This document shows positions 1,549 through 63,645 of a stretch of DNA of 64,000 nucleotides, in pieces. Every line of letters begins with the position of its first letter. Positions within the stretch are counted from its first letter, which is position 1. The stretch covers positions 786 to 64,785 of the forward strand of contig JAEWBI010000045.1 in assembly GCA_023391185.1 (NCBI GenBank), in the 5' to 3' direction. The notes under the pieces are model-generated. The model worked only from the letters and a program-made list of their open reading frames with translations, searched no databases and had not been told where the DNA came from. The DNA comes from Bacillota bacterium (GTDB lineage: Bacteria > Bacillota_I > Bacilli_A > RF39 > UBA660). Position numbers and translations under genes: made by a program.

Positions 1549-2805
1549 ATGATTATATCAGTGTGCTCCAATCCTGACTTATTATCAGTTATGCTAATTG
1601 TTAATAAGGTTATTAATCTCTTAAGTATAATTGCTCCGATTGGTTTAATAGTTTTTGCTAGTGTTGATTTAGTTAGAGCAATTATTGCAAGAGATATTGA
1701 TAAAATAGCTAAGCAAAAAAGAATGATGCCTGTAAGAATAGTTGCGGCTATAATAGTTTTTCTTATTCCATCAGTATTAGATTTAATAATGAATTTTGCT
1801 GACAATACGTTTGAATATAATTCTTGTTTTACTAATGCTACTGAAGAGAATATTAAAATAGCTTATCTTAATAGTGCAGACAATGCAGTAGCAAAAGCAG
1901 AAACTTCATTAAATAGAATAGATTATGATGCAGCTTCACTTGCAGTATCAAAACTTGAAGATGGTTCAGAAAAAGACAATTATGAAGAAAGATTAAAAGT
2001 AGTTTTACAAACAATAAAAGATAAGGATAAAAGTGAAACTATAGTTAGTAAGTCTCCTAGTTCAACAATAACTGGCGGAGGTAAATTAAATATAGTAGGT
2101 AGTTATTCATCAGGTGGCAATGGTAGTTGTAAGAAAGGAATTGCCCTTACTTCTGAGCCAGATCCTTCCGCAGCTATTAATTGCTGGTCATATGTTAAAA
2201 CAAGCAACTTTGTTTTTCCAAAGGATCCTAAAACAGGTTTACCATTAGGCTCATGGCCAAAAAATTATGCATCAATACCAACACAGCTATCAGGTTATAA
2301 AACATATGCAGGGACATTTATAGTTCCTGTAACACCAACAAACAATAGTTATCATTTTGTATATCAACATACGGGAATAGACTTTATGGCTAACTTTGGG
2401 GAACCAATTTATTCACCTGTCGATGGTACACTTATGTATTCAGAGTGGGGACATACTAAAAATAAAGGTGGAGATGAAACGGCATACTCAGTTGGAATAA
2501 AACTTTCTAAAGGAGTAACAGTTCAAGGAGTTTATGTTGATACTGTATTTCTAACTCATTTAAGTGGTATCATATATCGTTGTAGTTCATCTACTAGCTG
2601 TAATAGAATAGTTAAAAAAGGTGAATTATTAGGGTTCGTAGGTAATGCAGCAGGTACTTCAACTTCAATAGGATGGGCACCGCATTTGCATATGACTTTA
2701 TATGGGCCATCTGGATATGATTATGGCTTAGTTTCTACAAAAATAGAAGCATTATATGGAATACCAACTAAATCTTCTGGTTATAAGATTACGGCAGGTG
2801 GATAA
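1549..2805 (+). CDS. membrane-anchored M23 (LytM-type) peptidoglycan metalloendopeptidase
   Basis: Two N-terminal TM helices are followed by a coiled linker and a C-terminal M23 signature: HTGIDF (HxxxD) and PHLHM (HxH). An extended -10 TGTTATACT lies upstream. Confidence 0.85.
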   Translation: MIISVCSNPDLLSVMLIVNKVINLLSIIAPIGLIVFASVDLVRAIIARDIDKIAKQKRMMPVRIVAAIIVFLIPSVLDLIMNFADNTFEYNSCFTNATEENIKIAYLNSADNAVAKAETSLNRIDYDAASLAVSKLEDGSEKDNYEERLKVVLQTIKDKDKSETIVSKSPSSTITGGGKLNIVGSYSSGGNGSCKKGIALTSEPDPSAAINCWSYVKTSNFVFPKDPKTGLPLGSWPKNYASIPTQLSGYKTYAGTFIVPVTPTNNSYHFVYQHTGIDFMANFGEPIYSPVDGTLMYSEWGHTKNKGGDETAYSVGIKLSKGVTVQGVYVDTVFLTHLSGIIYRCSSSTSCNRIVKKGELLGFVGNAAGTSTSIGWAPHLHMTLYGPSGYDYGLVSTKIEALYGIPTKSSGYKITAGG

Positions 2806-2806
2806 A

Positions 2807-3430
2807 ATGAAGAAAGTAATATTATTAGGCTTTTTAATAACTATATTTTTAACTGGTTGTCAGGCAAAAAACTTTAAGTATTATAAAAATGTATCTGATA
2901 CAGTTATATCTTTTTATAATAATAATGAATATGATAAAGAAAAATTTTATGAAGAAGACTTGTCTGCAATAAATGCTTTTTTATCTGAATTAACTCATAA
3001 AGATCAGATAGTAAATATAAGTGATTATATAACTAAATCGCAAGAATACTATACTAGTGAATCTAACACAGATGGAGTGTGGATAGACGGTAATACTTGC
3101 TATATAAAGTATAACGAATTGGGTCTATTCAGTACTGGAGAAGAAGTTGAAAATGATTCTTATGAAATAGAATTAAATAAACGTATAGTTTGTAACAATT
3201 ATTATACTATACTATATGAATCAAACTTTTATCCTAACTATAATGTAACAAAATTAAACCCTAGATATAATTACATATATTTAGATGGTAATAAGTTAAA
3301 AAAAGGATATGAATTTATTTATCGCTCTACATATGATGGGACTGGCATGAAAGTTAACATTGTAATAGAAGATAAAAAAATAGTTAAGATAAATACTAGT
3401 ATTATTGATGTAACAGGATATATAAAGTAA
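2807..3430 (+). CDS. lipoprotein, partner of the upstream hydrolase (unknown family)
   Basis: ATG 2807 lies 1 nt after the upstream stop. Lipobox in MKKVILLGFLITIFLTGC. Paralogous to the 4504-5256 product (shared YIKY, YNYIY, YDGTGM, KKIVKIN motifs). Confidence 0.8.
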   Translation: MKKVILLGFLITIFLTGCQAKNFKYYKNVSDTVISFYNNNEYDKEKFYEEDLSAINAFLSELTHKDQIVNISDYITKSQEYYTSESNTDGVWIDGNTCYIKYNELGLFSTGEEVENDSYEIELNKRIVCNNYYTILYESNFYPNYNVTKLNPRYNYIYLDGNKLKKGYEFIYRSTYDGTGMKVNIVIEDKKIVKINTSIIDVTGYIK

Positions 3431-3490
3431 AGGAAAAAGTTAGATTACTTTTTCTTTTTATATGTTATAATGTTAAAAGGTTGTGGTTTT

Positions 3491-4501
3491 ATGATATTAA
3501 CTATATGTAGTAATGCTGATTTATTATCGGTAATGATTTTAGTAAGAAAAATAATAGATCTATTTCAAATAATAGCTCCAGTTGGTTTAATTATATTTGC
3601 AAGTCTAGATATTATTAAAGCTGTTATTTCTAACAAACAAGATGAAATTTATAGAAAACTCCATCAAATTCCTAGAAGGGTTCTTGCAGCAATAATCGTC
3701 TTCTTTGTTCCAGTTATTATTGATTTAGTAATGTCAGTGGCTGACAATACTTTTGAGTATGCAGCTTGTTTTGAAAATGCTACTGAAGAATATGTCCAAG
3801 ATGCGTATGTATCAAATGCTTACGAAGCTGTTAATTTAGCAGAAGCTTCATTAAAGATGTACGATCATGATAATGCACTTTTACTTACTAATAAAATAAA
3901 AGATAATGATATTAAAATAGTGTTGAAAGATAGATTGGAAACTGTTTTAACAATAATAAATGAAAATAATAAGGATGATGCTAGAAAAGAAAGCTCATCT
4001 AAGAAAGGTACTATTAATATAGTAAAAGGTAGTAATTCTAGTTCATATGGTAGTACAGGGCAGTCAACATCAGGTAATGTGACTTTTACTGATTCTAATG
4101 TGATAACCACAACAGCTTTAAATCATTTAGGAACTGTTTATGTTTGGGGTGGTGAAAGTTGGTCTGGTGGTGTTGATTGTTCTGGTTTTGTTTATAGAGT
4201 TTTTAATGATGTTGGACATTCAATTAGTAGAGGAACGGCTGAATCATACTTAAGCTTAGGATGTAGAGTAAACAGTATTAATGATGCTAAACCAGGAGAT
4301 CTATTAATTTATGGGACAAGACATGTGGCTATTTATTTGGGAGTAGACACTACTGGGACAAAATGGCGTGTTCATGCTTCAGGGGATCAATATTGTAATG
4401 GTAAAACAGCTACTAATTGTCAAGTAAAAAAGGATACAAATATTTTTGCCTTACGAGCAGGCGAATCACTTTCAATTAGAAGATTATCAGGAGGATGTTA
4501 A
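3491..4501 (+). CDS. membrane-anchored NlpC/P60 peptidoglycan endopeptidase
   Basis: The N-terminal ~105 aa are about half identical to the 1549 product (hand alignment). The C-terminal NlpC/P60 signature is VDCSGFVYRVF (catalytic Cys) and HVAIYLG (His). The start is taken at MILTICS (3491), matching the paralog. Confidence 0.85.
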   Translation: MILTICSNADLLSVMILVRKIIDLFQIIAPVGLIIFASLDIIKAVISNKQDEIYRKLHQIPRRVLAAIIVFFVPVIIDLVMSVADNTFEYAACFENATEEYVQDAYVSNAYEAVNLAEASLKMYDHDNALLLTNKIKDNDIKIVLKDRLETVLTIINENNKDDARKESSSKKGTINIVKGSNSSSYGSTGQSTSGNVTFTDSNVITTTALNHLGTVYVWGGESWSGGVDCSGFVYRVFNDVGHSISRGTAESYLSLGCRVNSINDAKPGDLLIYGTRHVAIYLGVDTTGTKWRVHASGDQYCNGKTATNCQVKKDTNIFALRAGESLSIRRLSGGC

Positions 4502-4503
4502 TT

Positions 4504-5256
4504 ATGAAAAAAATCATAATAATAACTTTACTACTCATGATTTCATTTATAACAAGTGGATGCACATCTAATTTATCTTCTGCACAAAAAATGGACGACA
4601 TAGTTTTGTCTTTATTAAATAATAAGAATTATGTAGCAAGTGGACTAAATAAAAATGAAATAAATTTGATAGATGCTTTTATAAAAAAAGAAAAATATAA
4701 TAATAAGATAATTAATTTAAATTCTCTATCTAAATATTCTGATTTAAGTTCTACTAATCATAAAGATAGTAATGGTGTTTATGAAGAAAAAGGAATCTAT
4801 TATATAAAGTATTCTGATATAGTGTTTGAAAAAATTGTTGACTCAGAAAAAACTGATAATTCTAATGACATAAGTTACTATGCGACTACTTTGTATTTTA
4901 ATAACCGCGAACTTAATATAACTAAAGATATCATTCCTGTCTTGTATGAAGATACTAAAGATAATTTAAAGTATAACTATATTTATAGAGGTACTTCTCT
5001 ATATAATGACGCTATAGTTTCTTATTATAATTCTGTTTATGATGATACTGGAATGCAAATAGTATTTAATTTAAAAAATAAGAAAATATTTAATATAAAT
5101 ATTGTTTATGATGTTTCTAATGATATATATAATATTGAAAATAATGATTCAAATAATATATTTGGTGTCACTATTATAATTATTGGTATATTATTAATAT
5201 TTACTTTAGGGATATTTTTGATTACAAAAAAAGTAGCTATGACTAGAAAAATATAA
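4504..5256 (+). CDS. lipoprotein with an extra C-terminal TM helix, paralog of the 2807-3430 product
   Basis: Lipobox in MKKIIIITLLLMISFITSGC. Shared motifs with the 2807 product. C-terminal hydrophobic stretch VTIIIIGILLIFTLGIFLI. Confidence 0.8.
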   Translation: MKKIIIITLLLMISFITSGCTSNLSSAQKMDDIVLSLLNNKNYVASGLNKNEINLIDAFIKKEKYNNKIINLNSLSKYSDLSSTNHKDSNGVYEEKGIYYIKYSDIVFEKIVDSEKTDNSNDISYYATTLYFNNRELNITKDIIPVLYEDTKDNLKYNYIYRGTSLYNDAIVSYYNSVYDDTGMQIVFNLKNKKIFNINIVYDVSNDIYNIENNDSNNIFGVTIIIIGILLIFTLGIFLITKKVAMTRKI

Positions 5257-10380: not shown

Positions 10381-10454
10381 GTATAATACTTAATCTTTTT
10401 AATTGCCAAAATATGTAAAAAAAGGTATACTTATTATAGATGATAGGTGATAGT

Positions 10455-11582
10455 ATGAAAAAGAAAATAAGAAATTTGAATAGTGGTTTCACATTAGTAG
10501 AATTAATTGCCATTATAATTATAATATCTGTTATATCTTTGGTTTCTTTTGTAGCCATGACAAGAACAATTAAGAATAATCAGATTAAAGAGATAGAAGC
10601 TTTTGAAACAAGTTTAAAAGAAGCTGCTCAAATATATGTAGAAACTGATTTAACTAACTTTCCAACTTTAGACTTACCAGGAGGTTTTATTCAAGTTACT
10701 GCTAATTCCTTAATTGATAAAGGTTATTTTAAAAAAGGTATTAATAATCCGACAGACTGTACGATAGCTAATACTTTTGTATATGTCTTAAAACATTCAA
10801 ATAATACAATTTCATATTCAGTTTACTGTACTGGAGATACAATAAATGAACCTGATGATCCTGTTGAGACTTATGCAACATATACAAATGGTACAGCAGT
10901 ATACTTTAATCCTGTAACCGGAACTAAATGTGCATCAGGCGATGCTGTAAGTACTACAGGAACTAAAACTGGATGTATGAAGTGGTATGCATTTAATGAT
11001 GGTGGAAATACTACTTCAATGATTAATTTAATATTAGATCATAACACAACAGCTACTGTAGCATGGAATAATTCCGGATATAATGTAGATGGACCAACTA
11101 ATGTGCTTGCACAACTAGCTTCTGATACAAACTCATGGGCAGGAGTACCAAAAAGAACGGATATATATACTGTTAGTAATGGAACAGCTACATATAATAT
11201 AAATTATGGTACATATAGAGCAAGACTTATAACAGCAAATGAAATAGCCAAAATAACAAGTAATAGTAGTTTTTCAGAGGAGACAACTATATTTTCAGAT
11301 TGGTTTTTCTTAGACAGTAATAATCAAACATTTACAGCATCAACTCCTGGTTCAAGCAATTATGACTGGTTATTTGATTATACGAATGAATGTACAACAT
11401 ACGGATGTAGTTTTGCCGATTCTAGTAATTATGGATACTGGACATCAACAGCTGTTTTTAACAATTCTCTTATTGCGTGGAGCATAGATAGAAGTGGTAA
11501 TTTAAGTGAGGATGCAGTACACTTGCAAAATGCTAGTGGCATCCGCCCTGTAATAACTTTATCCAAAAATGCTATTAAGTAG
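10455..11582 (+). CDS. modular type IV prepilin: N-terminal pilin module plus a C-terminal lectin-like (DUF1566-like?) module
   Basis: Class III signal peptide MKKKIRNLNSG/FTLVE with Glu+5 and a hydrophobic helix. SD GGTGAT-AGT-ATG. The C-terminal ~235 aa are paralogous to the C-terminus of the 29196 product. Confidence 0.85.
   Translation: MKKKIRNLNSGFTLVELIAIIIIISVISLVSFVAMTRTIKNNQIKEIEAFETSLKEAAQIYVETDLTNFPTLDLPGGFIQVTANSLIDKGYFKKGINNPTDCTIANTFVYVLKHSNNTISYSVYCTGDTINEPDDPVETYATYTNGTAVYFNPVTGTKCASGDAVSTTGTKTGCMKWYAFNDGGNTTSMINLILDHNTTATVAWNNSGYNVDGPTNVLAQLASDTNSWAGVPKRTDIYTVSNGTATYNINYGTYRARLITANEIAKITSNSSFSEETTIFSDWFFLDSNNQTFTASTPGSSNYDWLFDYTNECTTYGCSFADSSNYGYWTSTAVFNNSLIAWSIDRSGNLSEDAVHLQNASGIRPVITLSKNAIK
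10885..11579 (+). repeat. dispersed ~0.7-kb paralogous coding module (copy 1 of 2; the partner is 31082-31778)
   Basis: Long stretches of near-identical DNA, e.g. AATGGTACAGCAGTATA[CT]TTTAATCC and GGATGTATGAA[GA]TGG. The proteins are roughly two-thirds identical by eye. Confidence 0.8.
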
Positions 11583-21845: not shown

Positions 21846-22616
21846 ATGAAAAAAAAGATAAATGGTTTTTCATTAGTTGAGTTACTTGCGGTTATAATAG
21901 TACTAGGAATTATTGCTTTAATTATTATTCCTTCGACTTTGAAAATTTTGGATAAATCAAAGAAAGATTCTTTTGAAAGAAGTGTTGTTGGATTAATAAA
22001 AGCTGCAACAAACTATATGGCAGAAAGTGATTTTGAAGATTGGACAAGTGGATTAACTATAGCTAATATTCAAACTAATAATTTGTTTGAAGCAAAGAAT
22101 CTAGATGCTTTTACAAGTGGAACACTATATAATAACAATGGTACTATTGCTGCTTCCAATGTTACTGATGGAAATTATTGTGCTAATGGAAAAAAGAATA
22201 GTTTAACTATTACGAAAGGAAATTGTGTAACAGGTAATGATATTATATATGAGATAGATACTATAAATTTAAGAGATTTTTCCAATTGGAAATCTGGTAA
22301 TTATAATTGGACTAGTGGTTCTTATGAAGCTTATCCAGCTAGATTATGCTTAAATAATCATATTACTGGAAAACCTAGTACAACTTATAAGGTTACAATT
22401 TCTAATACCAGTTATCGAATTTTAATTCGTGCTCTAGATAGTAATCATACATTTATATCAAGTTTTGATTTAGCAACAACAGGTACTTTTACAACGCCTG
22501 CTAATACTGTATACTTAGCAATTTCAATATATAATCCAACTTCATCTACATTAACTTATGATTCATATAAGAATTTATTTGAAAGTGGATTTAAAGTAGA
22601 CATAGTAAAGCAATAA
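21846..22616 (+). CDS. modular type IV prepilin with an unknown beta-rich C-terminal module
   Basis: MKKKING/FSLVELLAVIIVLGIIALIIIPS. The Cys-bracketed loop TDGNYCANG...GNC is shared with the 49002 product. Confidence 0.85.
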   Translation: MKKKINGFSLVELLAVIIVLGIIALIIIPSTLKILDKSKKDSFERSVVGLIKAATNYMAESDFEDWTSGLTIANIQTNNLFEAKNLDAFTSGTLYNNNGTIAASNVTDGNYCANGKKNSLTITKGNCVTGNDIIYEIDTINLRDFSNWKSGNYNWTSGSYEAYPARLCLNNHITGKPSTTYKVTISNTSYRILIRALDSNHTFISSFDLATTGTFTTPANTVYLAISIYNPTSSTLTYDSYKNLFESGFKVDIVKQ

Positions 22617-28978: not shown

Positions 28979-29109
28979 AAGGAAATATTTATTTTCTTTT
29001 TTTGTTGTAGATCTTTGACAAGATTTCAATTTATACTTTTACTTTTAACAAGCAAAATGATGGTTCATACACTTTATATAGTATAAAAAAAGAATCATAA
29101 ATATAGAGT

Positions 29110-29141
29110 CTTGGATTTAATAGATAAAATCCAAGATTTTT
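29110..29141 (+). terminator. rho-independent terminator-like hairpin
   Basis: CTTGGATTT-loop-AAATCCAAG followed by TTTTT. Confidence 0.6.
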
Positions 29142-29195
29142 ATTTTGGGTAGATTAAATTATTTTATATGTGTTATAATTATACTAGGTGATAGT

Positions 29196-31781
29196 ATGAG
29201 AGAGAATAAAGGTTTTACTCTAGTAGAAATGCTAGGGGTACTTATTATATTGATAGTGGTATTTATGATAATGTTCCCTTCACTTACTAAAATAATAAAA
29301 GATACTAATGATAAAATAGATAATGCTACAATAACGGTTATAGAAGATGCGACAACTGATTTTTTATTAGAAAAAAATGATATATATCCTAAGAATGATG
29401 ATTATACTTATTGTATAACTATTGAACAACTTATTGATAATGGAAATTTAACTAATAAAGAGATATCATCTTTAGATGATACAGATAAGTTTGTTAAAAC
29501 AACTTTTGAAAATGGAAAAAGTGTATATGTTTTAACTGATACATGTACAGTTTCAAAACCTAATATTGAGTTTGCACTTATTGGTAATAACAATATGTCT
29601 TTTGAAGTCGGGGTAGGAGGACAATATGTTGAACCTGGTGCAAATGCTAAAAATAAGGCTGGGGAAGTAGTAAGTTATGTAACAGAAATTATTAATAAAA
29701 ATAAGGTGACAGTTGCATATGTTGATACCACTAAAATAGGTGTTTATACTGTAAAATATATTGCAACAATAGATGGAAAAGATTATGCGATTGAAAGAAT
29801 AGTCAAGGTAATTGATACGACTTCGCCAACCATTACAGTAAATCCAACTACTGAAACTATATCTGTTACAAATAAAACATATAATGTTCTAAGTGGAGTG
29901 ACCTCATCAGATAATAGTGGTGTATCTCCAAAAATAACAGCTAGTACTAATTTAAGTTTAGGACAAACTGGAAATTATACTATAACATACACAGCTATAG
30001 ATTCTAGTGGTAATAAAACAACAGCAAAAAGAACCGTTATAATTTCTAGTGGATCACTTGTTAGTATATCAATAGGAGTAACTAGTGTAACACATGAAAT
30101 AAATTCTGGGGTTTATGTTGATCCAGCAGTTAATGCACAAGATATATCAGGTAATGATTTAACATTACAAATTGTTAAAACAATAAGAAAAAATGGTAAT
30201 ATTGTTAGTAGTGTTGATGTTGATAAGATAGAAAAATACTATATAACATATAGTATTACTAGAGAAAATGTAACATATAGTGAGACAAGGACTGTCAATA
30301 TAGTCGATACCACTAAGCCAGTTATAACAGGTGCAGGTGACACTAACATATATGTTACAGATAATACTTACAATGTTATGGCTGGAGTATCAGTAACAGA
30401 TAATAGCGGCGAGATTATTACAATTAATACTGTATCTAATTTAACATTGGGTATTGTTGGCAGTTACAGTGTAACTTATACAGCGACAGACTCATCAGGT
30501 AATACAGCAACAGTTATAAGAATAATAAATGTTTTAGATAATATTTTACCAACTATAGCTTTTAGTAGGAACGGAACTGGTGAATATTTTAAAAATAGTA
30601 GTACAATAGTGACAGTTAGTGATAATGTTGCGGTGAATGCAAGTAGTTTAAAATATTTATGGAGTACAAGTACTAGCACTCCTTCTGAATCTTCATTTGT
30701 AACATCCTTTTCAAATGGTGGAACAATTAATACACCAACAGAAGTAACAGGAATTTATTATTTATGGGTTTTAGGAAAAGATAGTAGTGGAAATATGAAA
30801 ATTACAAGTAGTGGTGCCTTTTATGTTGATAATACTGCCCCTGCGATTACTTTGAATGGCTCAAATTCAATTTCAATTTATGTTAATACAGCTTATAATG
30901 AATTAGGTGCAAATGCAACTGATGCACATAGTGGTATTAGTGGAAACATAATGATAACGGGAACAGTAAATACATCTTCACCAGGAGTTTATTCATTAAC
31001 ATATAGAGCAATTGATTGGGCTGGAAATTATTCTGCTCAATTAACTAGAACTGTAACAGTAAAACCTTATACAGTATATGCAAATGGTACAGCAGTATAT
31101 TTTAATCCAGTAAGTGGAGCAAAATGTACATCGGGTGAAGCAGTAAGTACAACCGGTACTAAAACAGGATGTATGAAATGGTTCGCATTTATTGATGGCG
31201 GCTCAACAACTAGTACTATTAATTTAATCTTAGATCATAATACATCCGCATCAGTAGCTTGGAATTCATCAGGATATAATACAAGTGGTCCAAGCAATGT
31301 TACGACACAGCTTAAAACAGATACTAGTTCTTGGGCAGGAGTACCTACAAGAACTGACAATTATGTATTAAGCAACGGAACAGCGAGTTATACAATAAAT
31401 TACAGCACATATAAAGCTAGATTAATAAAGGCAAGTGAAATAGCAACCATTACGGGCAATGCTGCTTTTGTTGAGACGACATCAACTTCTTCAAGTTACT
31501 TTTATTTAGATAGTAATAATCAAACACAAACAGCAACCACAACAGGTGCTAGTAGATTTGCATGGTTATTTAATTATACTAAGGATTGTACTGGATATGG
31601 ATGTAGTATTGCTGATGCTAGTGTCTGGGGTTATTGGACTTCTACTGCTGTTGCTAGTAATAACACCTATGCTTGGCGCGTTTCTTGTTATGGCAGATTT
31701 GACTTTGACAACAAAGGAGTTAGTGCCAGTTATTCTGGTGTACGTCCTGTTATAACAATATCAAAAGTATTACTAGATTAA
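29196..31781 (+). CDS. giant (861-aa) modular type IV prepilin: pilin module, about six Ig-like repeats, lectin-like C-terminal module
   Basis: MRENKG/FTLVEMLGVLIILIVVF. Extended -10 TGTTATAAT and SD GGTGAT-AGT-ATG. Repeats of the type DTT[SK]P.IT...YNV..GV...DNSG......N....G.Y..TYTA.DSSGN. The C-terminus is paralogous to the 10455 product. Confidence 0.88.
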   Translation: MRENKGFTLVEMLGVLIILIVVFMIMFPSLTKIIKDTNDKIDNATITVIEDATTDFLLEKNDIYPKNDDYTYCITIEQLIDNGNLTNKEISSLDDTDKFVKTTFENGKSVYVLTDTCTVSKPNIEFALIGNNNMSFEVGVGGQYVEPGANAKNKAGEVVSYVTEIINKNKVTVAYVDTTKIGVYTVKYIATIDGKDYAIERIVKVIDTTSPTITVNPTTETISVTNKTYNVLSGVTSSDNSGVSPKITASTNLSLGQTGNYTITYTAIDSSGNKTTAKRTVIISSGSLVSISIGVTSVTHEINSGVYVDPAVNAQDISGNDLTLQIVKTIRKNGNIVSSVDVDKIEKYYITYSITRENVTYSETRTVNIVDTTKPVITGAGDTNIYVTDNTYNVMAGVSVTDNSGEIITINTVSNLTLGIVGSYSVTYTATDSSGNTATVIRIINVLDNILPTIAFSRNGTGEYFKNSSTIVTVSDNVAVNASSLKYLWSTSTSTPSESSFVTSFSNGGTINTPTEVTGIYYLWVLGKDSSGNMKITSSGAFYVDNTAPAITLNGSNSISIYVNTAYNELGANATDAHSGISGNIMITGTVNTSSPGVYSLTYRAIDWAGNYSAQLTRTVTVKPYTVYANGTAVYFNPVSGAKCTSGEAVSTTGTKTGCMKWFAFIDGGSTTSTINLILDHNTSASVAWNSSGYNTSGPSNVTTQLKTDTSSWAGVPTRTDNYVLSNGTASYTINYSTYKARLIKASEIATITGNAAFVETTSTSSSYFYLDSNNQTQTATTTGASRFAWLFNYTKDCTGYGCSIADASVWGYWTSTAVASNNTYAWRVSCYGRFDFDNKGVSASYSGVRPVITISKVLLD
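31082..31778 (+). repeat. dispersed ~0.7-kb paralogous coding module (copy 2 of 2; the partner is 10885-11579)
   Basis: See 10885-11579. Confidence 0.8.
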
Positions 31782-31913: not shown

Positions 31914-33203
31914 TTATTTTTTTATTTTCTTTACATTCCATAAATCATAACATGTAACAAAGATAATACCAAAGATGATTGATATAACAAGACCCCACAT
32001 ACCTATTCTAAATGTTGTAAATAGAGCTAGTGCAGAAGTTTTTATAATAATGCCTATCAATGTTCCATACATGCTTATTTTTGCTTTTCCCATGGCTTGT
32101 AAACTCGCTGAAAGGGGGGATTGAATATATTGCAGTAAAAATACAGGAGCAAGAATTTTTACATAGTTTATACCTTCGTCAGTATTATAAATAAATTTTA
32201 GAAAGAATTCTGGATAATTAAATAATACTACTGTTACAGGAATACCAACAATTAATGAGAAAAAGATTGCTTGTTTAATTTTTCTTCTAACATTAATCAT
32301 ATCTTTACAGACATAACTTTTAGAGATTACAGGTATTAAAGCCTGACTAATAGCCATTGTAAAAAAAGAAGGTAAAAGAAGCATAGGTAAAACATAACCA
32401 TTTATTACCCCATACTCTCTTGTTATAAAAGAACTACTATAACTTAAACTTAATAATATATTAGTAAGAATTATTGGTTCAAAAAAATAACCTATATTTC
32501 CAATTAATCTACTTATAGTAGTGGGTATACTTATACTAAATACACTGGACAAATTATTTTTATTTGGTATTAAATCGTTCTTTTGTATTTTAAAGTTCTT
32601 TGGCAGAAAGAAGAATAAAATGAGAATAGATGTAAGTTCGCTTACAACATTTGAAAGTATTATAAATGCAATCGCATAGTCTAGTCCCTTTAATAAAAAA
32701 ACTGGAACTCCTAGAAAAATAATAATTAATCTAACTACATCTTCAACTATGTTTGATATAACATGAGGGAACATTCTTTGTTTACCAAAAAAGTAACCCC
32801 TAAGAATACTTGATATACTTATAAATGGTAAAACAAACCCAATGCAAATAAGACCATATCTAGTATTGCTTTCATGTAGTAAATTATTTGATATAAAGCT
32901 ACTAGAAATTATTAATATAAATATAATAATTAGATTTAAGATTAATGATATAGGAATAGTAGTAAAAACTAAATTCTTATTATTTTTAGTTTCTTCAGCT
33001 ACTAATTTTGATATGGCAACAGGAAACCCTAATTGAGCAAATGCTATAAGTAAGCTGAAAGTAGGCATAATAAGCATATAAGTTCCTATACCCTCAGTGC
33101 CTAAAATTCTAGTCATGACTATTTTTATTATCATACCTAGTATTTTAGTAACAAGTCCTCCAATTAGTAATATAAATGTTGATTTAATAAATTTATTTTT
33201 CAT
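31914..33203 (-). CDS. MOP-superfamily flippase (polysaccharide biosynthesis protein / SpoVB-MurJ-like)
   Basis: About 12 TM helices. N-terminus FILLIGGLVTKILGMIIKIVMTRILGTEGIGTY is typical of the family. At 429 aa it is shorter than usual. Confidence 0.65.
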   Translation of the reverse strand: MKNKFIKSTFILLIGGLVTKILGMIIKIVMTRILGTEGIGTYMLIMPTFSLLIAFAQLGFPVAISKLVAEETKNNKNLVFTTIPISLILNLIIIFILIISSSFISNNLLHESNTRYGLICIGFVLPFISISSILRGYFFGKQRMFPHVISNIVEDVVRLIIIFLGVPVFLLKGLDYAIAFIILSNVVSELTSILILFFFLPKNFKIQKNDLIPNKNNLSSVFSISIPTTISRLIGNIGYFFEPIILTNILLSLSYSSSFITREYGVINGYVLPMLLLPSFFTMAISQALIPVISKSYVCKDMINVRRKIKQAIFFSLIVGIPVTVVLFNYPEFFLKFIYNTDEGINYVKILAPVFLLQYIQSPLSASLQAMGKAKISMYGTLIGIIIKTSALALFTTFRIGMWGLVISIIFGIIFVTCYDLWNVKKIKK

Positions 33204-33419: not shown

Positions 33420-33833
33420 ATGAAAGATAGTAAGGGCTTCGGATTAGTAGAGTTAATGATTGTACTTGCGATAGTTGTTTTTATACTAGATATAAGTATT
33501 CCAAAAGTCCAATCATATATTAGTAATAAAAAAGAACATGAAGATAATAGTGCTGTTTTAGAAGTAGCAGTATATAATGTAAAAACATATATTAACGAAC
33601 TTAATAAAAGTTTGATTTTGGATCTTAAAGATAGTGGAAGCTATTATGTTTCCGATATGAAAGTTACAATTAAGGGGACGCTTCCTAGTGGTGATAGTTG
33701 GATTGTTATTGATGATAACAAAGTTATTCAGGGTTTGTTTAAACAACCTTGTGGTAAAAGTTATGCATATATTAGTTATGATGGAGAACAATACGAGATA
33801 TTAGAGGATGCAGAGTTAACAGTTAAACCATAA
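33420..33833 (+). CDS. small type IV prepilin (137 aa), candidate major pilin or pseudopilin
   Basis: MKDSKG/FGLVELMIVLAIVVFILDISIPK with Glu+5. SD GGTGAG. Confidence 0.8.
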   Translation: MKDSKGFGLVELMIVLAIVVFILDISIPKVQSYISNKKEHEDNSAVLEVAVYNVKTYINELNKSLILDLKDSGSYYVSDMKVTIKGTLPSGDSWIVIDDNKVIQGLFKQPCGKSYAYISYDGEQYEILEDAELTVKP

Positions 33834-43469: not shown

Positions 43470-43658
43470 TTCATAGACGAGTACTTATAAACTATGTTCT
43501 AGAGAAAATGTGGATGGTGTAAACATAACTATGTTTATAATGAAAGACACTATGAAGTAAGGTAATCGTAATTCTGCGTTAAAGAATTAGAGGTAGATTA
43601 AAGTCTATAAAACAAGGTGGTACAGCGTGCATCACGCCCTTGTATTTATAGACTTTTT
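43470..43658 (+). promoter_or_regulatory. T-box riboswitch leader, specifier GAC (Asp), copy 1
   Basis: Promoter TTGACT(43419)-17-TATACT(43442). Stem I TTCATAG/CTATGAA. Specifier loop AGTA // TGAAAGACA. AGAGA at 43501. F-box GCGTTA. T-box core AACAAGGTGGTACAGCGTG at 43611-43629. U-tract at 43654-43658. Confidence 0.85.
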
Positions 43659-46096: not shown

Positions 46097-46284
46097 TTTT
46101 AGATTAGTAATTATATTAACTTTGAAGAGAGAATTAACGGTTGGTGAAAGTTAACAAAGCTATATAATGAATGACACTAAAACTAAAGATAATCGTATTT
46201 CTGCGTTAAGGAATTCAAGGTAGATAAAGTCTATAAAGTAAGGTGGCAACACGTGATGTACGTCCTTACATTTATAGACTTTTT
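46097..46284 (+). promoter_or_regulatory. T-box riboswitch leader, specifier GAC (Asp), copy 2 (hisS-aspS)
   Basis: Promoter TTGACT(46052)-17-TATAAT(46075). Stem I TTTTAG/CTAAAA. Specifier loop AGTA // GAATGACA. AGAGA at 46126. GCGTTA. T-box core AGTAAGGTGGCAACACGTG. U-tract. Confidence 0.88.
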
Positions 46285-49001: not shown

Positions 49002-50351
49002 ATGGTAAAGGATATTGATAAATTTAAAAAAGAAATGTTAGAGCGTAATAAAAAAAGGAAAAAGGGATTTACTTTAATAGAATTACTTGCAGTTTTTGTT
49101 GTACTTGCGGTAGTTGCGGGGGTTGCTATTTTTTCTATTAATAATATAGAAGAAGAATTATCTGCAAAATCTTATGGTGAATCTGTAAAAAATGTTATTT
49201 CATCAGCTCAAAATTATTACTCTTCCAATGCAGAAACAGGGTTTCCTCCTGCTGGGTTATCGGTATTATCTGATGAAATAGAAATTGAAAATAAGAACCA
49301 GTATAAAAATGGTTTAATAATATACAATTCCATAACAGGAAAATTAGAAGCCAAGAACATCACAGATGGCAATTACTGTGCCAATGGTCCAATCGATAAT
49401 TTGAATATTGTTGAGGGAGAGTGTCCTTCAACTGATCTTGCTTGTTTTGATTATACTAAAGCAAGCGGCAAAGTGACTATCACTGGTTTCGATTATAGTA
49501 ACAACTCTTGCTTAGGATATGTAACAGTCCCATCAACAATTGAAGGATTACCTGTAACAAAAGTTGGGTTTGCAGCTTTTGCTGACACTAATAAAATTAC
49601 TCCAGAAGCATGTGAACCAAATGAAGAATTCTTAGTTCCATCTTTCACAACAACAGGAACATCATCTATAAAAATAACTGCTACTCCATTATCATCAACC
49701 TATGCTTTAGAGGTTGATGATAACTGTGTAAGTTATACCAATTTTTATGATCATACAGCTGATGGTGAATATAGCTGCGGATGCAGTTTGTTTAATGTTC
49801 AAGGTATGACTGTAGGGAATAGTGGTAGCAAACTACTAGGAATTACTCTTCCAAGTACAATAACTTATATAGACAATTTAGCATTTGCTAAAACGTCATT
49901 AAACTATATAAATTTGAATAGTTTAACTGAATTAACCTATATAGGGGATTCTAGTTTTAAAGACACTAATTTATTAAGTTTGGATTTTTCTGGATTAAAT
50001 AAACTTTCGACAATAGGTTATGCCGCTTTTAATGGAAGTAGTATTAACAAATTAAATATAACTAATCTTTATAATTTGGCAATTATAAGAAGTGGTGCTT
50101 TTTCAGAAAATAATATTGAGAGTTTGGACTTTACTGGTAGTAATAATATCACACACATAGGGACAGGTGCTTTTGCTAGTAATCAAATATCTGATATTAA
50201 GATAAATAATTTAACTAAACTAAATTCTCTTTGGTATGGAGCATTTTGTGGTAATCCATTTACACTATCATCAGATACTTTACCTGATACATCGAATTTA
50301 ACAGGAGTAGAGGTTTCAAAACTAGTTTCAGCTTGTTTATTGGAAAATTAA
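49002..50351 (+). CDS. modular type IV prepilin with a C-terminal BspA-type leucine-rich-repeat module
   Basis: A 22-aa leader ending KKG/FTLIELLAVFVVLAVVAGVAIFS. The TDGNYCANG...GEC loop is shared with the 21846 product. Repeats of the type L..I.IP..vt.Ig..AF. Confidence 0.85.
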   Translation: MVKDIDKFKKEMLERNKKRKKGFTLIELLAVFVVLAVVAGVAIFSINNIEEELSAKSYGESVKNVISSAQNYYSSNAETGFPPAGLSVLSDEIEIENKNQYKNGLIIYNSITGKLEAKNITDGNYCANGPIDNLNIVEGECPSTDLACFDYTKASGKVTITGFDYSNNSCLGYVTVPSTIEGLPVTKVGFAAFADTNKITPEACEPNEEFLVPSFTTTGTSSIKITATPLSSTYALEVDDNCVSYTNFYDHTADGEYSCGCSLFNVQGMTVGNSGSKLLGITLPSTITYIDNLAFAKTSLNYINLNSLTELTYIGDSSFKDTNLLSLDFSGLNKLSTIGYAAFNGSSINKLNITNLYNLAIIRSGAFSENNIESLDFTGSNNITHIGTGAFASNQISDIKINNLTKLNSLWYGAFCGNPFTLSSDTLPDTSNLTGVEVSKLVSACLLEN

Positions 50352-50422
50352 AATTATTAAATAAAGTGAGTATTGATGTAAACTCTATTTTCAAATCTAA
50401 AAATTTATGTTATAATTAATAT

Positions 50423-50597
50423 ACCTAAGAAACATATAGTAGCACTTATGAAAAACCTACTAATATAACGAATTGGGAATCTAATTTATAGATGGTGTTG
50501 AATGCTTACTACGTTAAGAATCCTAAAGTTTATAATGTGATGCCCACCTGGGAGATCAGGTTTTACTCGTTATGCTACTGTTTCCTAGGTTTTTTTG
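50423..50597 (+). ncRNA. candidate 6S RNA (SsrS/BsrA-like)
   Basis: Extended -10 TGTTATAAT at 50408-50416. A ~175-nt non-coding stretch whose ends pair (CCTAAGAAACA..AGTAGCA with TGCTACT..TGTTTCCTAGG). Inner helix AAAACC/GGTTTT around an asymmetric bubble. Sits in the aspS-tcdA interval, where B. subtilis has 6S-1. Confidence 0.55.
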
Positions 50598-55263: not shown

Positions 55264-55340
55264 GGACCCTTAGCTCAGTTGGTTAGAGCATCCGGCTCAT
55301 AACCGGGCGGTCGTAGGTTCGAGTCCTACAGGGTCCACCA
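55264..55340 (+). tRNA. tRNA with CAT anticodon, probably tRNA-Ile2 (lysidine); formally Met
   Basis: Full hand-folded cloverleaf: acceptor GGACCCT/AGGGTCC, anticodon loop CTCATAA, T-loop TTCGAGT, encoded CCA. The GGACC.TTAGCTCAG start resembles Firmicutes Ile2. Confidence 0.9.
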
Positions 55341-55346
55341 CTTGTT

Positions 55347-55431
55347 GCGAGTGTGGCGAAATTGGCAGACGCACTAGACTTAGGATCTAGCGCCGTGAGG
55401 CATATGGGTTCAAGTCCCTTCACTCGCACCA
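55347..55431 (+). tRNA. tRNA-Leu (TAG anticodon)
   Basis: Class II tRNA: acceptor GCGAGTG/CACTCGC, anticodon arm CTAGA-CTTAGGA-TCTAG, long variable arm, encoded CCA. One U-U mismatch in the T-stem. Confidence 0.9.
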
Positions 55432-60456: not shown

Positions 60457-60570
60457 AAGAAGTTACAAGTAACATTGTAACTTCTTTTAAAAACTCTTTT
60501 ATATTTAATAAAAGTATGTTATAATTTATATATATAAAATAGAGTAAAAGGGAATTGGCAGGTGCTACAT

Positions 60571-62862
60571 ATGCAAAATAAGCCTATATACGTATGGCCA
60601 TTTATACTAGTTTATAGAGTTGTAATAATAATTCTAAAACTACCACTGGCTGTAATACATTATTTTTTAATGGGATTCTTTTTTTCGATATATACGTTAA
60701 TAGAAGTATTTGTTGATTTAGGAATATTTATTTCATTTGTTTGGTGGAGTTTCTTAAAATATTTATTTTTAGGAATATCTTTTCCATTCGTATTTGTTGC
60801 AAGAATTTTAAAAAACAAGAAAGTTTCTCCTCATAAAGAAAAAACTATTTTGTTTGAAAAAACTAAGGAAAAACCTAAGAAGAACAATATAATAAAACTA
60901 AAAACAGAACCAGCTAAGGCTGCAAGTACAGCTACTGCTGTACTTAATACAGGTCAACTTCGCAAGAAAGAAAATAGCAAAGAAGAAACTTTGAAAGTTG
61001 ATAAGGAACTTAAGAGATTAAAACAAGTTGCTGATAAAGAAGCTGCTATTCATGCTAAAAAGATGGAACAACTTCGCAAAAAAGAAGAAATTAAAGCTGC
61101 AAAAGAAAAAGCCCAATTAGATAAAATAACAAAGAAAAAGGCTTTAGAAGAAGAAGCTAAGAAAAAACAAGAGGCAGCCGAAGAATTAAAAGAACAACAA
61201 AGGTTGATGCGTGAATATAAGCGTAAACAAGAATATGATGCTGCTTTAGAAAAAAAGAAAAAATCAGAAGCTATTTCGCAACCAAAGAAAGAAAAAGTAA
61301 AGAGTATAGCTTTAACTAAAAAAGAAGAGGCTAGGGCTGCAAAGCAAAAATTAAAGCAAGAAAAGATTCAGCGTAGGAAAGAACTAGCAGCTGAAAAGAA
61401 AAAACTAAAAGAAAAAAATACTTATATTAACGATAAAGTTGTTATTGAAAAGAAAACACTTGGAGACCGAATTAATTCGGGATTAGAAACTCTTATAAAA
61501 GTTCCAAAAATGTTTTCTCAAAAAATCAAAAAAAGTTTTACTGATTCTTCTTTTGCAAGAAATAAGCGTAATCAGGAAGACATGCATCGTGAGGCTTTAC
61601 TTATTGACTTTGAAAGTGATGACGCTAAGAAAAGTGATAAGAAGATTGTTTATGAATATGTTGGTAAAAATGCCGAAGGTAAATTAATTAAATCATATTT
61701 TGAAGCCTTTTCCAAGGTGGAAGTACATTCATTCTTATTAAGCGAAGGTTTTGAAGTATATAGTATCAAGACAAGTCCTTTAATTACATTTTTGCATGGT
61801 GCTAAGCAGTCAAGAAATGTAAAATTTAAAGTTAAAGACTTAATATTTTTCTTGACACAGTTATCAACTTATATTAAAGCTGGTATTCCGCTTGTTGAAT
61901 CACTTAGAATTTTAAGTAGACAATTTCCTCAAAAAGGATATCAAAAAGTATTTAGATCTTTAATTTATGATTTAACAATGGGTGACAATTTTAGTGTTGC
62001 TTTAGAGAAGCAAGGAACTGCTTTTCCAAAATTACTCGTAAATATGATTAAAACTTCTGAAATGACTGGAGAACTTCCAGAAACACTTGACGATATGCAA
62101 GTTTATTTTGAAGAGGCAGAAAAGACAAAGAAACAAATGATTACTGCTCTTACTTATCCAACAATAGTGTTTGTACTTGCTGTTGGAGCAATTACTTTCA
62201 TTATGATATATATAGTTCCACAATTTGCAGGAATATATGCTGATATGGATAATGCTAAGTTACCAGGAATTACTGTTGCAATAATGAATTTAAGTGATTT
62301 CTTGAAAAATTACTGGATATATGTAATAGCAACAATATTTGGAGCTATATTTATATTCGTCTATTTATATAAAAATGTAAAACTATTTAGAACACTTATT
62401 CAGTGGTTTATGATGAAATTACCTATTATAGGTAATGTAATTATTTATAATGAAGTTACAATGTTTACTAAAACATTTGCTTCACTTTTAAAACACAATG
62501 TATTTATTACTGATACAATGGAAATTTTAAATAAAATTACAAATAATGAGATTTGGAAAATGCTTATTTTAGACACAATTACAAACTTGGCAAAGGGAGA
62601 AAAAATTTCACTTGCTTTCCAAGATCATTGGGCTGTACCAATACCCGCATATGAAATGATAGTTACTGGAGAACGTACTGGTCAATTACCAGAAATGATG
62701 CAAAAGGTTTCAGATTATTATCAAGAACTTCATAAAAATGCGGTTGGTAGGATTAAAGCTTTTATTGAACCAATACTAATCTTGTTCCTAACTGGGGCTG
62801 TTGGTGTTATTGTTCTTTCTATAGTAATTCCAATGTTTGACATGTATAATCAACTAGGATAA
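60571..62862 (+). CDS. type II secretion system F family platform protein (PilC/ComGB-like) with a ~355-aa N-terminal extension
   Basis: Residues ~360-763 are a canonical double T2SSF domain (YEYVGKNAEGK..., GIPLVESL, MIKTSEMTGELP, GERTGQLP). Residues 1-85 are hydrophobic and residues ~90-290 are K/E-rich. Confidence 0.85.
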   Translation: MQNKPIYVWPFILVYRVVIIILKLPLAVIHYFLMGFFFSIYTLIEVFVDLGIFISFVWWSFLKYLFLGISFPFVFVARILKNKKVSPHKEKTILFEKTKEKPKKNNIIKLKTEPAKAASTATAVLNTGQLRKKENSKEETLKVDKELKRLKQVADKEAAIHAKKMEQLRKKEEIKAAKEKAQLDKITKKKALEEEAKKKQEAAEELKEQQRLMREYKRKQEYDAALEKKKKSEAISQPKKEKVKSIALTKKEEARAAKQKLKQEKIQRRKELAAEKKKLKEKNTYINDKVVIEKKTLGDRINSGLETLIKVPKMFSQKIKKSFTDSSFARNKRNQEDMHREALLIDFESDDAKKSDKKIVYEYVGKNAEGKLIKSYFEAFSKVEVHSFLLSEGFEVYSIKTSPLITFLHGAKQSRNVKFKVKDLIFFLTQLSTYIKAGIPLVESLRILSRQFPQKGYQKVFRSLIYDLTMGDNFSVALEKQGTAFPKLLVNMIKTSEMTGELPETLDDMQVYFEEAEKTKKQMITALTYPTIVFVLAVGAITFIMIYIVPQFAGIYADMDNAKLPGITVAIMNLSDFLKNYWIYVIATIFGAIFIFVYLYKNVKLFRTLIQWFMMKLPIIGNVIIYNEVTMFTKTFASLLKHNVFITDTMEILNKITNNEIWKMLILDTITNLAKGEKISLAFQDHWAVPIPAYEMIVTGERTGQLPEMMQKVSDYYQELHKNAVGRIKAFIEPILILFLTGAVGVIVLSIVIPMFDMYNQLG

Positions 62863-62880: not shown

Positions 62881-63645
62881 ATGGAATTATATTATGGAAT
62901 TGTTATGCTTATATTTGGAACCATATTTGGTTCCTTTTACAACGTAGTAGGAGATAGATTACCTGATGGTAAGTCAATAGTAAAACCTGGCAGTCATTGT
63001 CCAAAATGTGGACATATGCTTAAACCAATTGAGCTAATACCGGTTTTATCTTATATTATGCAAGGTGGAAAATGCAAGAAATGTAAATGTAGAGTACCGA
63101 TATTTCATCCATTATTTGAGATATTTGTAGGTCTATTATTTCTTGGATGTTATTTATCCTTTGGTATCAGTACCAATCTAATAATTGCTCTAACATTTGC
63201 CTCAATGCTTGCAATATTAATAGTGAGTGATTATTATTATATGATTATACCAGATGAGGTATTAATAGTTTTTGGAATATTATTATTAATAGAGACTTTT
63301 GCAATATCAGGTCTAAGTGTTACATTAACATCTATATTAAATGGTGCAATAGCATTTGTTTGTATGTTTGGAATAAAAAAGTTTGGAGATTTTCTATTTA
63401 AAACAGATTCAATGGGTGGTGGTGACATTAAGTTATTATTCTTCTTTGGGTTTGTTCTAGGATGGGAAATGTCTATATTTTCAATATTTATAGGCTCTTT
63501 AATAGGATTACCAATATCCTTAATTACTTTAAAAGTTAAAAAAACAAACATAATTCCTTTTGGACCGTTTTTATCATTTGGAGCACTTATTATAATGTTA
63601 ACACATTTTGATATGGCGTCTCTTATAAGTATGTTATTAAGTTAA
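62881..63645 (+). CDS. pilD: prepilin peptidase (A24 family, PilD/ComC)
   Basis: N-terminal Cys4 (CPKCGH...CKKCKC). Catalytic Asp contexts IVSDYYYMIIPD and GGGDIKL. Confidence 0.9.
   Translation: MELYYGIVMLIFGTIFGSFYNVVGDRLPDGKSIVKPGSHCPKCGHMLKPIELIPVLSYIMQGGKCKKCKCRVPIFHPLFEIFVGLLFLGCYLSFGISTNLIIALTFASMLAILIVSDYYYMIIPDEVLIVFGILLLIETFAISGLSVTLTSILNGAIAFVCMFGIKKFGDFLFKTDSMGGGDIKLLFFFGFVLGWEMSIFSIFIGSLIGLPISLITLKVKKTNIIPFGPFLSFGALIIMLTHFDMASLISMLLS

Follow-up and report, generated by a model that had tools for sequence, protein, structure and literature searches.

A 91-kDa modular type IV pilin with a six-domain immunoglobulin-like stalk and a DUF6273-like tip predicted in an uncultured Bacillota bacterium

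Gene and domain layout

The 64,000-nucleotide (nt) stretch of DNA analyzed here (the window) comes from an uncultured low-GC Bacillota bacterium. At 29196 it carries a gene for a prepilin of 861 amino acids (aa), in which a type IV pilin module is joined to a series of immunoglobulin (Ig)-like domains and a C-terminal globular module. In the six-frame list of open reading frames (ORFs), the frame runs from 29145 to 31781 (+), with an in-frame ATG at 29196 that gives the 861-aa product and a Shine-Dalgarno sequence, AGGTGA, at 29186-29191, 5' of this ATG. The same start is used in the public gene calls, in which P0001 is 861 aa long and 100% identical. The mature protein is computed at 855 aa and 91.5 kDa, with a pI of 4.95. 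The layout was confirmed in the sequence, and the product is predicted to be a 91-kDa modular type IV pilin with a pilin base, a six-Ig stalk, and a hypervariable tip. Its features are as follows, with the evidence for each in parentheses.

29105..29140, + strand: terminator-like hairpin with a T-run after it, separating the 29196 gene from the gene upstream (sequence scan)
29196..31781, + strand: whole gene including the stop codon, 861-aa prepilin (open frame, public gene call)
29196..29213, + strand: leader peptide MRENKG with Gly-1 last; predicted PilD cut after residue 6 (sequence)
29214..29276, + strand: alpha1N with Phe+1, Glu+5, and the 21-residue hydrophobic tract FTLVEMLGVLIILIVVFMIMF (motif scan, pilin models, AlphaFold helix)
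29196..29567, + strand: pilin module, residues 1-124, alpha1 and a small beta head (orthologue alignment, AlphaFold, pilin models)
29568..29813, + strand: Ig-like domain 1, residues 125-206, in the conserved base (self-BLAST, AlphaFold)
29814..30059, + strand: Ig-like domain 2, residues 207-288, DUF5011/HYR (Pfam, self-BLAST)
30060..30305, + strand: Ig-like domain 3, residues 289-370, a copy of domain 1 (self-BLAST, AlphaFold, DNA repeat)
30306..30551, + strand: Ig-like domain 4, residues 371-452, DUF5011, a copy of domain 2 (Pfam, self-BLAST)
30552..30830, + strand: Ig-like domain 5, residues 453-545, of another type and modeled with low AlphaFold confidence (self-BLAST, AlphaFold)
30831..31061, + strand: Ig-like domain 6, residues 546-622, the top-scoring DUF5011 stretch (Pfam, self-BLAST)
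31062..31778, + strand: C-terminal tip module, residues 623-861, 239 aa, DUF6273-like fold (AlphaFold, Foldseek, subthreshold Pfam match)
31644..31736, + strand: hypervariable segment of the tip, residues 817-847, predicted beta-hairpin (column entropy, AlphaFold)

The hairpin upstream of the gene suggests independent transcription. A promoter scan of the region 5' of the gene gave a score no better than that of shuffled sequence; TGnTATAAT occurs at 29171-29179, with a spacing to the Shine-Dalgarno sequence that is too short for a confident promoter assignment. No phase-variable repeats were found in the gene or 5' of it; the one repeat detected is an old internal duplication in the stalk region, described below.

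Pilin identity of the N-terminus

An earlier note on this DNA had read the N-terminus as a class III signal peptide, and the elements of such a peptide are all present, with MRENKG followed by FTLVEMLGVLIILIVVFMIMF. The leader is short and hydrophilic with Gly at -1, as in a type IV pilin, and the Phe+1, the Glu+5, and the alpha1N of about 21 hydrophobic residues are likewise those of type IV pilins. All six frames of the window were scanned with a regular expression for the prepilin motif, G-F-[STG]-L-[VI]-E followed by a hydrophobic tract. The motif occurs five times (10455, 21846, 29196, 33420, and 49002), always at the N-terminus of a plus-strand ORF, and nowhere else in the six frames. 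In an alignment of 16 orthologues, G6, F7, E11, Cys73, and Cys117 are invariant. The invariance of the motif in orthologues and its restriction to ORF N-termini largely rule out a chance resemblance of a Sec signal anchor to a prepilin.

Profile searches point in the same direction. The NCBIfam ComGC model matches residues 5-63 of the protein (E = 1.7e-10), and the ComGE, GspG, ComGD, and ComGF models likewise match its N-terminus. The scores of the ComG and GspG models are under the equivalog cut-offs, as is expected of matches confined to alpha1. PF07963 is present in the precomputed hits of several orthologues. When the Protein Data Bank (PDB) was searched with the sequence of the pilin module, alpha1 of PilA and geopilin aligned; beyond alpha1, neither the pilin module nor the tip had a match in this search. 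The full-length AlphaFold model, with a mean predicted local distance difference test score (pLDDT) of 70, contains a 51-residue helix (residues 9-59), strands at 71-75, 99-105, and 108-114, beta-sandwich domains running to residue 623, and then the tip, with region 450-550 poorly modeled. The pilin module, previously estimated at about 120 aa, comes to about 124 aa here, with the ComGC-type matches at its N-terminus and with alpha1 and a small beta head in the AlphaFold model.

Ig-like stalk

The central part of the protein matches PF16403 (DUF5011, now Bact_surface_Ig-like) in five stretches, with an E value of 5.5e-42 and 142.1 bits against a gathering threshold of 27, and HYR also scores above its Pfam cut-off. 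The DUF5011/HYR likeness proposed in the earlier note is thereby borne out, and both peptides quoted there are present, at residues 207-284 and 370-447. Pfam and self-BLAST together find six units where about six Ig-like repeats had been placed. According to self-BLAST, residues 293-455 are a second copy, 40-50% identical, of the two-domain unit at 129-292, and this duplication can still be recognized in the DNA (74% identity, 489-nt spacing). The duplicated unit is followed by a different beta domain at about 453-545 and then by DUF5011 at 546-622. A Foldseek search with the full-length model returned cadherin, S-layer, and other multi-Ig ectodomains; because such generic matches dominate, this search is uninformative for the pilin head.

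Tip module and its family

The C-terminal module is shared with the pilin at 10455, as had been claimed. Residues 622-857 align with residues 142-376 of the 380-aa ORF at 10440-11582, with 64% identity (E = 7e-101). The module contains conserved Cys644/659 and Cys798/803. It belongs to a large family: there are 1,722 word-indexed homologues, and a search of 1.84 billion proteins gave 1,203 cluster representatives at E <= 1e-3. A pilin N-terminus was found in 108 of the 120 best homologues, the lengths of which cluster at about 365 aa, corresponding to a pilin module plus a tip without a stalk. Among more distant representatives, about half have the strict prepilin motif; in others the N-terminus is pilin-like but lacks Glu+5 or has Ala-1, and some carry lipoprotein or Sec signals. 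Tip-bearing genes are also numerous within single genomes. The 683-kb contig of this region bears at least six genes with the tip module, at least four of them additional paralogues, and at least seven proteins from the tip search are encoded on a 959-kb contig of L002, another metagenome-assembled genome (MAG).

The tip was modeled by AlphaFold from a 52-sequence alignment with a pLDDT of 96.2 and a predicted template-modeling score of 0.92. In a Foldseek search of the PDB, the best match, without being a strong one, was the Thomasclavelia ramosa IgA peptidase (E = 2e-3), followed by the C-type-lectin-fold proteins EgtB, FGE, Mtd, Ly49, and SP-A at E values of only 0.2 to 5. A more informative search was that of BFVD, a library of predicted viral structures, in which DUF6273 phage proteins and receptor-binding proteins came out on top, with E values of 2.5e-5 to 2.7e-4 and a probability of 1.0. 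DUF6273 was detected at E <= 0.01 in 7 of 52 members of the tip family, and the Pfam match of the tip to Lcl_C had an E value of 1.3. On the basis of these models, the predicted tip resembles phage receptor-binding domains; a pattern scan of IMG/VR found no close tip relatives. The canonical C-type lectin motifs EPN, QPD, and WND were not seen on reading residues 623-861, so that "lectin-like," the term first applied to this tip, is a statement on the fold and not on the function, and in its functional sense the term was not upheld. Column entropy across 52 homologues peaks sharply at residues 817-847, between an invariant GYWTST and an invariant GVRPVIT, and in the model this hypervariable hairpin is the probable ligand-binding surface. 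A diversity-generating retroelement (DGR) acting on the tip was considered and rejected for the window, in which neither a reverse transcriptase ORF nor a pair of template and variable repeats was found.

Orthologues and exchange of the distal part

The identical 861-aa protein is recorded on four contigs, and a look-up of PilD identified three assemblies of the region, two of them from ENA (a scaffold of 683 kb and, in the other assembly, a contig of 240 kb) and the third a Logan contig. When each species was represented by one genome, a scan for orthologous loci detected synteny at two, both in other MAGs labeled "Bacillota bacterium" (L002 and L003). In L002, the gene order is the same from an MBOAT gene to relA, and the DNA is 90-92% identical on both sides of the gene. 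The window and L002 are collinear, at 92% identity, as far as nt 30016, which corresponds to residue ~274 where Ig domain 2 ends, and once more from nt 31927 on; the sequences between these points are unrelated. The L002 gene encodes 495 aa, in which the pilin module is 100%, Ig1 96%, and Ig2 70% identical, and these are followed directly by a divergent tip with 39% identity. In L003, the protein is 602 aa long and its gene has a second copy in tandem. P0008 (876 aa), encoded by a further MAG, matches the 29196 protein in the order of all six Ig domains and differs from it at the distal end. Orthologues retain the pilin module, Ig1, and Ig2, and vary in the remainder, which comprises zero to five extra Ig domains and different tips. 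As judged from these alignments, strains and paralogues were shown to keep a base of pilin, Ig1, and Ig2 and to exchange the distal part, that is, stalk length and tip type, a pattern that would fit the diversification of binding specificity. The four contigs, the syntenic orthologues in L002 and L003, and the six-Ig stalk of P0008 rule out an assembly or fusion artefact.

In MAG OH_CBlB_40, the pilin-adhesin gene is tandemly duplicated (L003 10001-11809 and 12000-13406). At L003 3103-3507, a short 134-aa pilin occupies the position of a 256-aa modular pilin in the window, which indicates that modules are gained or lost at more than one pilin locus. P0053 to P0057 are related pilin-DUF5011 proteins of about 720 aa that end in PT-HINT/Hint_2 domains, which are presumably those of polymorphic toxin systems; in that case, delivery or release of a payload at the C-terminus, rather than ligand binding, may be the role of some modular pilins in these lineages.

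Assembly machinery and other pilin-like genes

Genes for the assembly of type IV filaments and other pilin-like genes lie in the window and just past its end.

10455..11582, + strand: bimodular paralogue with a different pilin module and the same tip module, 64% identical (Pfam, BLAST)
21846-22616, + strand: 256-aa modular pilin, pilin plus an unassigned beta module (prepilin motif)
33420..33833, + strand: small 137-aa pilin adjoining the 29196 gene and syntenic in L002, candidate filament subunit (motif, synteny, pilin models)
49002-50351, + strand: pilin plus BspA-type leucine-rich repeats (LRR) (prepilin motif)
60562..62862, + strand: PilC/GspF-type platform protein with two T2SSF domains and an N-terminal extension of about 400 aa (Pfam)
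62881..63645, + strand: prepilin peptidase PilD with A24_N_bact and Peptidase_A24, GGGDIK motif present (Pfam)
L004 12543-13514 and 13519-15132: two pilin-like genes after the ATPase gene, past the end of the window

In the 10 kb read past the end of the window, a divergently oriented T2SSE ATPase gene lies just after PilD; its product scores 482 bits against GspE, 469 against PilB, and 263 against ComGA. One of the two pilin-like proteins encoded next to it starts with MRKLDKKG/FMLTE, and the other starts with MNKKG/FTTVE and has a Gly-rich PF12810 end. The genome thus has a prepilin peptidase, an assembly ATPase, and a platform protein. Together, the motif, the pilin models, and this machinery indicate that the N-terminus of the 29196 protein is a class III signal peptide, in a genome with a core type IV filament machine. 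The four other ORFs with class III signal peptides in the window are scattered among its housekeeping genes, and both their density and their dispersal look high. The extension of the platform protein consists of hydrophobic segments followed by a long Lys/Glu-rich stretch; we know of no such extension in other PilC/GspF family proteins.

Other features of the window

Two paralogous membrane proteins (1549-2805 and 3470-4501) have an N-terminal region of about 150 aa in common, and downstream of each lies a gene for a lipoprotein-like product (2756-3430 and 4495-5256). By reading of the sequence, the two membrane proteins have ends that look M23-peptidase-like and NlpC/P60-like, and they point to a peptidoglycan wall in this organism. 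A 60-nt direct repeat with internal dyad symmetry (43599-43658 and 46225-46284, 78% identical) has its copies upstream of a gene for an 805-aa AAA-type protein and of hisS. The two may have a regulatory element or a terminator in common; no Rfam family was matched at the gathering score. A 6S RNA gene (50419-50595) lies directly 3' of the LRR pilin gene, and tRNA-Met and tRNA-Leu genes (55264-55431) follow smc.

Proposed function and alternative explanations

As judged from its domains, the product of the 29196 gene is probably a minor type IV pilin of the modular kind, with the function of an adhesin; processing by PilD, incorporation into a filament at a particular position, and ligand binding are the steps that we infer for it. 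The prepilin would insert in the membrane, and PilD (62881-63645) would remove MRENKG and methylate Phe+1. The PilB-type ATPase and the PilC platform would then load the pilin module, via alpha1, into a type IV filament consisting mainly of a small pilin, for which the 137-aa pilin at 33420 is the nearest candidate. Considering the bulk of an extension of about 730 aa, a position at the filament tip, or that of a rare subunit, is most likely. The six Ig-like domains would form a stalk of about 20-25 nm, as estimated from the typical size of an Ig domain and not from the model, which would present the DUF6273-like globular tip, and the hairpin at 817-847 would contact a putative ligand, either a glycan or a protein.

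Several observations weigh against this interpretation. The Pfam N_methyl model (PF07963) is a near miss at 19.7 bits, under its cut-off of 21.2, TIGR02532 (IV_pilin_GFxxxE) did not report the protein at E <= 0.01, and the pilin head is modeled at a pLDDT of only about 55-77. For the tip, the match to Pfam DUF6273 (PF19789) is subthreshold (18.9 versus 23.5 bits), and the template-modeling scores of the top BFVD matches are 0.45-0.53. PilM/N/O and PilT were not seen in the stretches read, the gene is about 31 kb from the machinery and seemingly transcribed alone, and the source organism is an uncultured MAG. Moreover, with a stalk of six Ig-like domains, display of the tip across the wall could do without a filament. 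The last point leads to the main rival explanation, a pilin-anchored, non-polymerised surface adhesin whose tip would reach through the wall on the Ig stalk alone, which we consider rather unlikely. At an estimated 20-25 nm, six Ig-like domains would suffice to cross the wall of a Gram-positive cell, orthologues differ in the length of the stalk, and the pilin-like genes are dispersed among housekeeping genes with no pil operon. Class III signals have also been put to use outside filaments (PMC3047682), and the anchored adhesin would resemble the archaeal sugar-binding proteins of the bindosome, which have such signal peptides. However, the far commoner paralogues of about 365 aa bear the same tip with no stalk and so need a filament for its display, which speaks against anchoring as a general rule, although it may still hold for the long forms; a full set of ATPase, platform protein, and peptidase is present along with small pilins; and Glu+5, which in type IV pilins matters for subunit-subunit packing and not for cleavage, is invariant.

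It is highly improbable that the protein is unrelated to adhesion and serves instead as a cargo-like or pseudopilin part in a machine for competence or for secretion of a type II-like kind. The ATPase scores slightly better against GspE than against PilB, and the ComGC and GspG models match the N-terminus, but these matches are below the equivalog cut-offs and cover alpha1 alone, the match of the ATPase to ComGA is much weaker (263 bits), and an Ig stalk with a hypervariable tip resembling phage receptor-binding proteins is the layout of an adhesin. It is hardly credible that the N-terminus is an ordinary Sec signal anchor that looks like a prepilin by chance, or that the gene is a misassembly chimera. 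The N_methyl score 1.5 bits under the cut-off would allow it, but the motif is invariant in orthologues and found only at ORF N-termini, the identical protein occurs on four contigs from different assemblies, L002 and L003 share its base, and P0008 from another MAG repeats its six-Ig order. Within the preferred reading of a modular pilin-adhesin, this lineage of uncultured low-GC Bacilli may, as a tentative extension that we hold to be possible rather than probable, run a combinatorial system of tip adhesins in which one type IV machine serves many dispersed modular pilin genes with cassette-exchanged tips; five pilin-like genes are in the window and two more beside the ATPase gene. If this were true, the system would be a cellular counterpart of the diversification of phage tail fibres, with a stalk length possibly tuned to the thickness of the wall or capsule.

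Comparison with known systems

Modular pilins explain how a simple filament can take on many functions. The size of the 29196 protein had led the earlier note to call it an extreme case, an assessment that does not stand: pilin-motif proteins of 900-1,977 aa were found here, and a modular pilin of 860 residues is already catalogued. The latter, a multi-domain protein, is the most extreme example in a 2021 survey that lists more than 1,200 modular pilins (1,219 in Dataset S1) with 264 architectures (Raynaud et al., PMC8179133). By the definition in that survey (Raynaud et al. 2021), a modular pilin combines a pilin module with domains that are not specific to type IV pili, and the 29196 protein fits it, with five PF16403 stretches, HYR, and a DUF6273-like tip after the pilin module. 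Dataset S1 contains the combination IPR012902-IPR032179 in three proteins and its two-copy form in one, and pilins with PF12810, PF07591, LRR, and C-type lectin domains are also listed (PMC8179133). The 29196 gene pushes the modular design further, with six stalk domains, a mature protein of 91 kDa, and a tip fold otherwise found in phage receptor binding. In what follows, we take IPR032179 to be DUF5011. The catalogue has this entry in four proteins with at most two copies each, whereas the 29196 protein has six domains of the DUF5011 type, and it includes no DUF6273 entry; an expansion of paralogues and an exchange of cassettes like those found in this analysis are not described in it either (PMC8179133).

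The closest studied protein is PilC of Streptococcus sanguinis, which consists of a pilin module, an Ig-like module, and a concanavalin A (ConA)-like lectin and has been modeled in a tip complex (PMC9934059). PilC and the 29196 protein both have an Ig-like part followed by a distal binding module, but PilC has one Ig-like domain, a ConA-like lectin, and a mass of 53 kDa, against six domains, a DUF6273-like tip, and 91.5 kDa in the 29196 protein. There is no sequence relationship between the two beyond alpha1, and the PilC gene lies inside a pil locus, whereas the 29196 gene stands alone at about 31 kb from the machinery. To our knowledge, PilB and PilC of S. sanguinis are the only modular pilins of monoderms studied experimentally so far. 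A similar plan is seen in CofB, a type IVb minor pilin of enterotoxigenic Escherichia coli (ETEC), in which a pilin module is followed by a linker, beta-rich domains, and a distal beta-sandwich, with a predicted position at the tip (PMC8179133). CofB differs from the 29196 protein in being a diderm type IVb pilin that is trimeric and much shorter, with other folds and no hypervariable tip family. TcpB of Vibrio cholerae is similar to CofB.

For the tip, the closest structural matches are the DUF6273 domains of phages and the T. ramosa IgA protease, in which DUF6273 is also combined with Ig-like domains. In gut phages, DUF6273 receptor-binding domains occur in tentaclins and as DGR targets (PMC10743442); in the T. 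ramosa IgA protease, it is the N-terminal domain that is annotated as DUF6273 (PMC12402451). The phage domains are on the phage tail, whereas the tip module here is on a pilin, with a subthreshold sequence similarity (18.9 versus 23.5 bits), and unlike the DGR-target domains it has no retroelement or template repeat in the window.

The 29196 protein is thus a large member of an already known kind and not an outlier. The DUF6273-like tip, the six-domain DUF5011 stalk, the organisation into a constant base and a variable distal part, and the number and dispersal of the genes within one small genome are not in the 2021 catalogue. In the family, which is seen here in uncultured organisms, diversity arises from changes in the number of domains, from swapping of tips, and from paralogy. 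If these proteins are displayed on filaments, they bear on how bulky subunits are loaded and pass the wall, and on how gut and environmental Bacilli vary their adhesion specificity. The single gene is a good but unsurprising example of a modular pilin, and the pattern at the level of the family is the more interesting lead.

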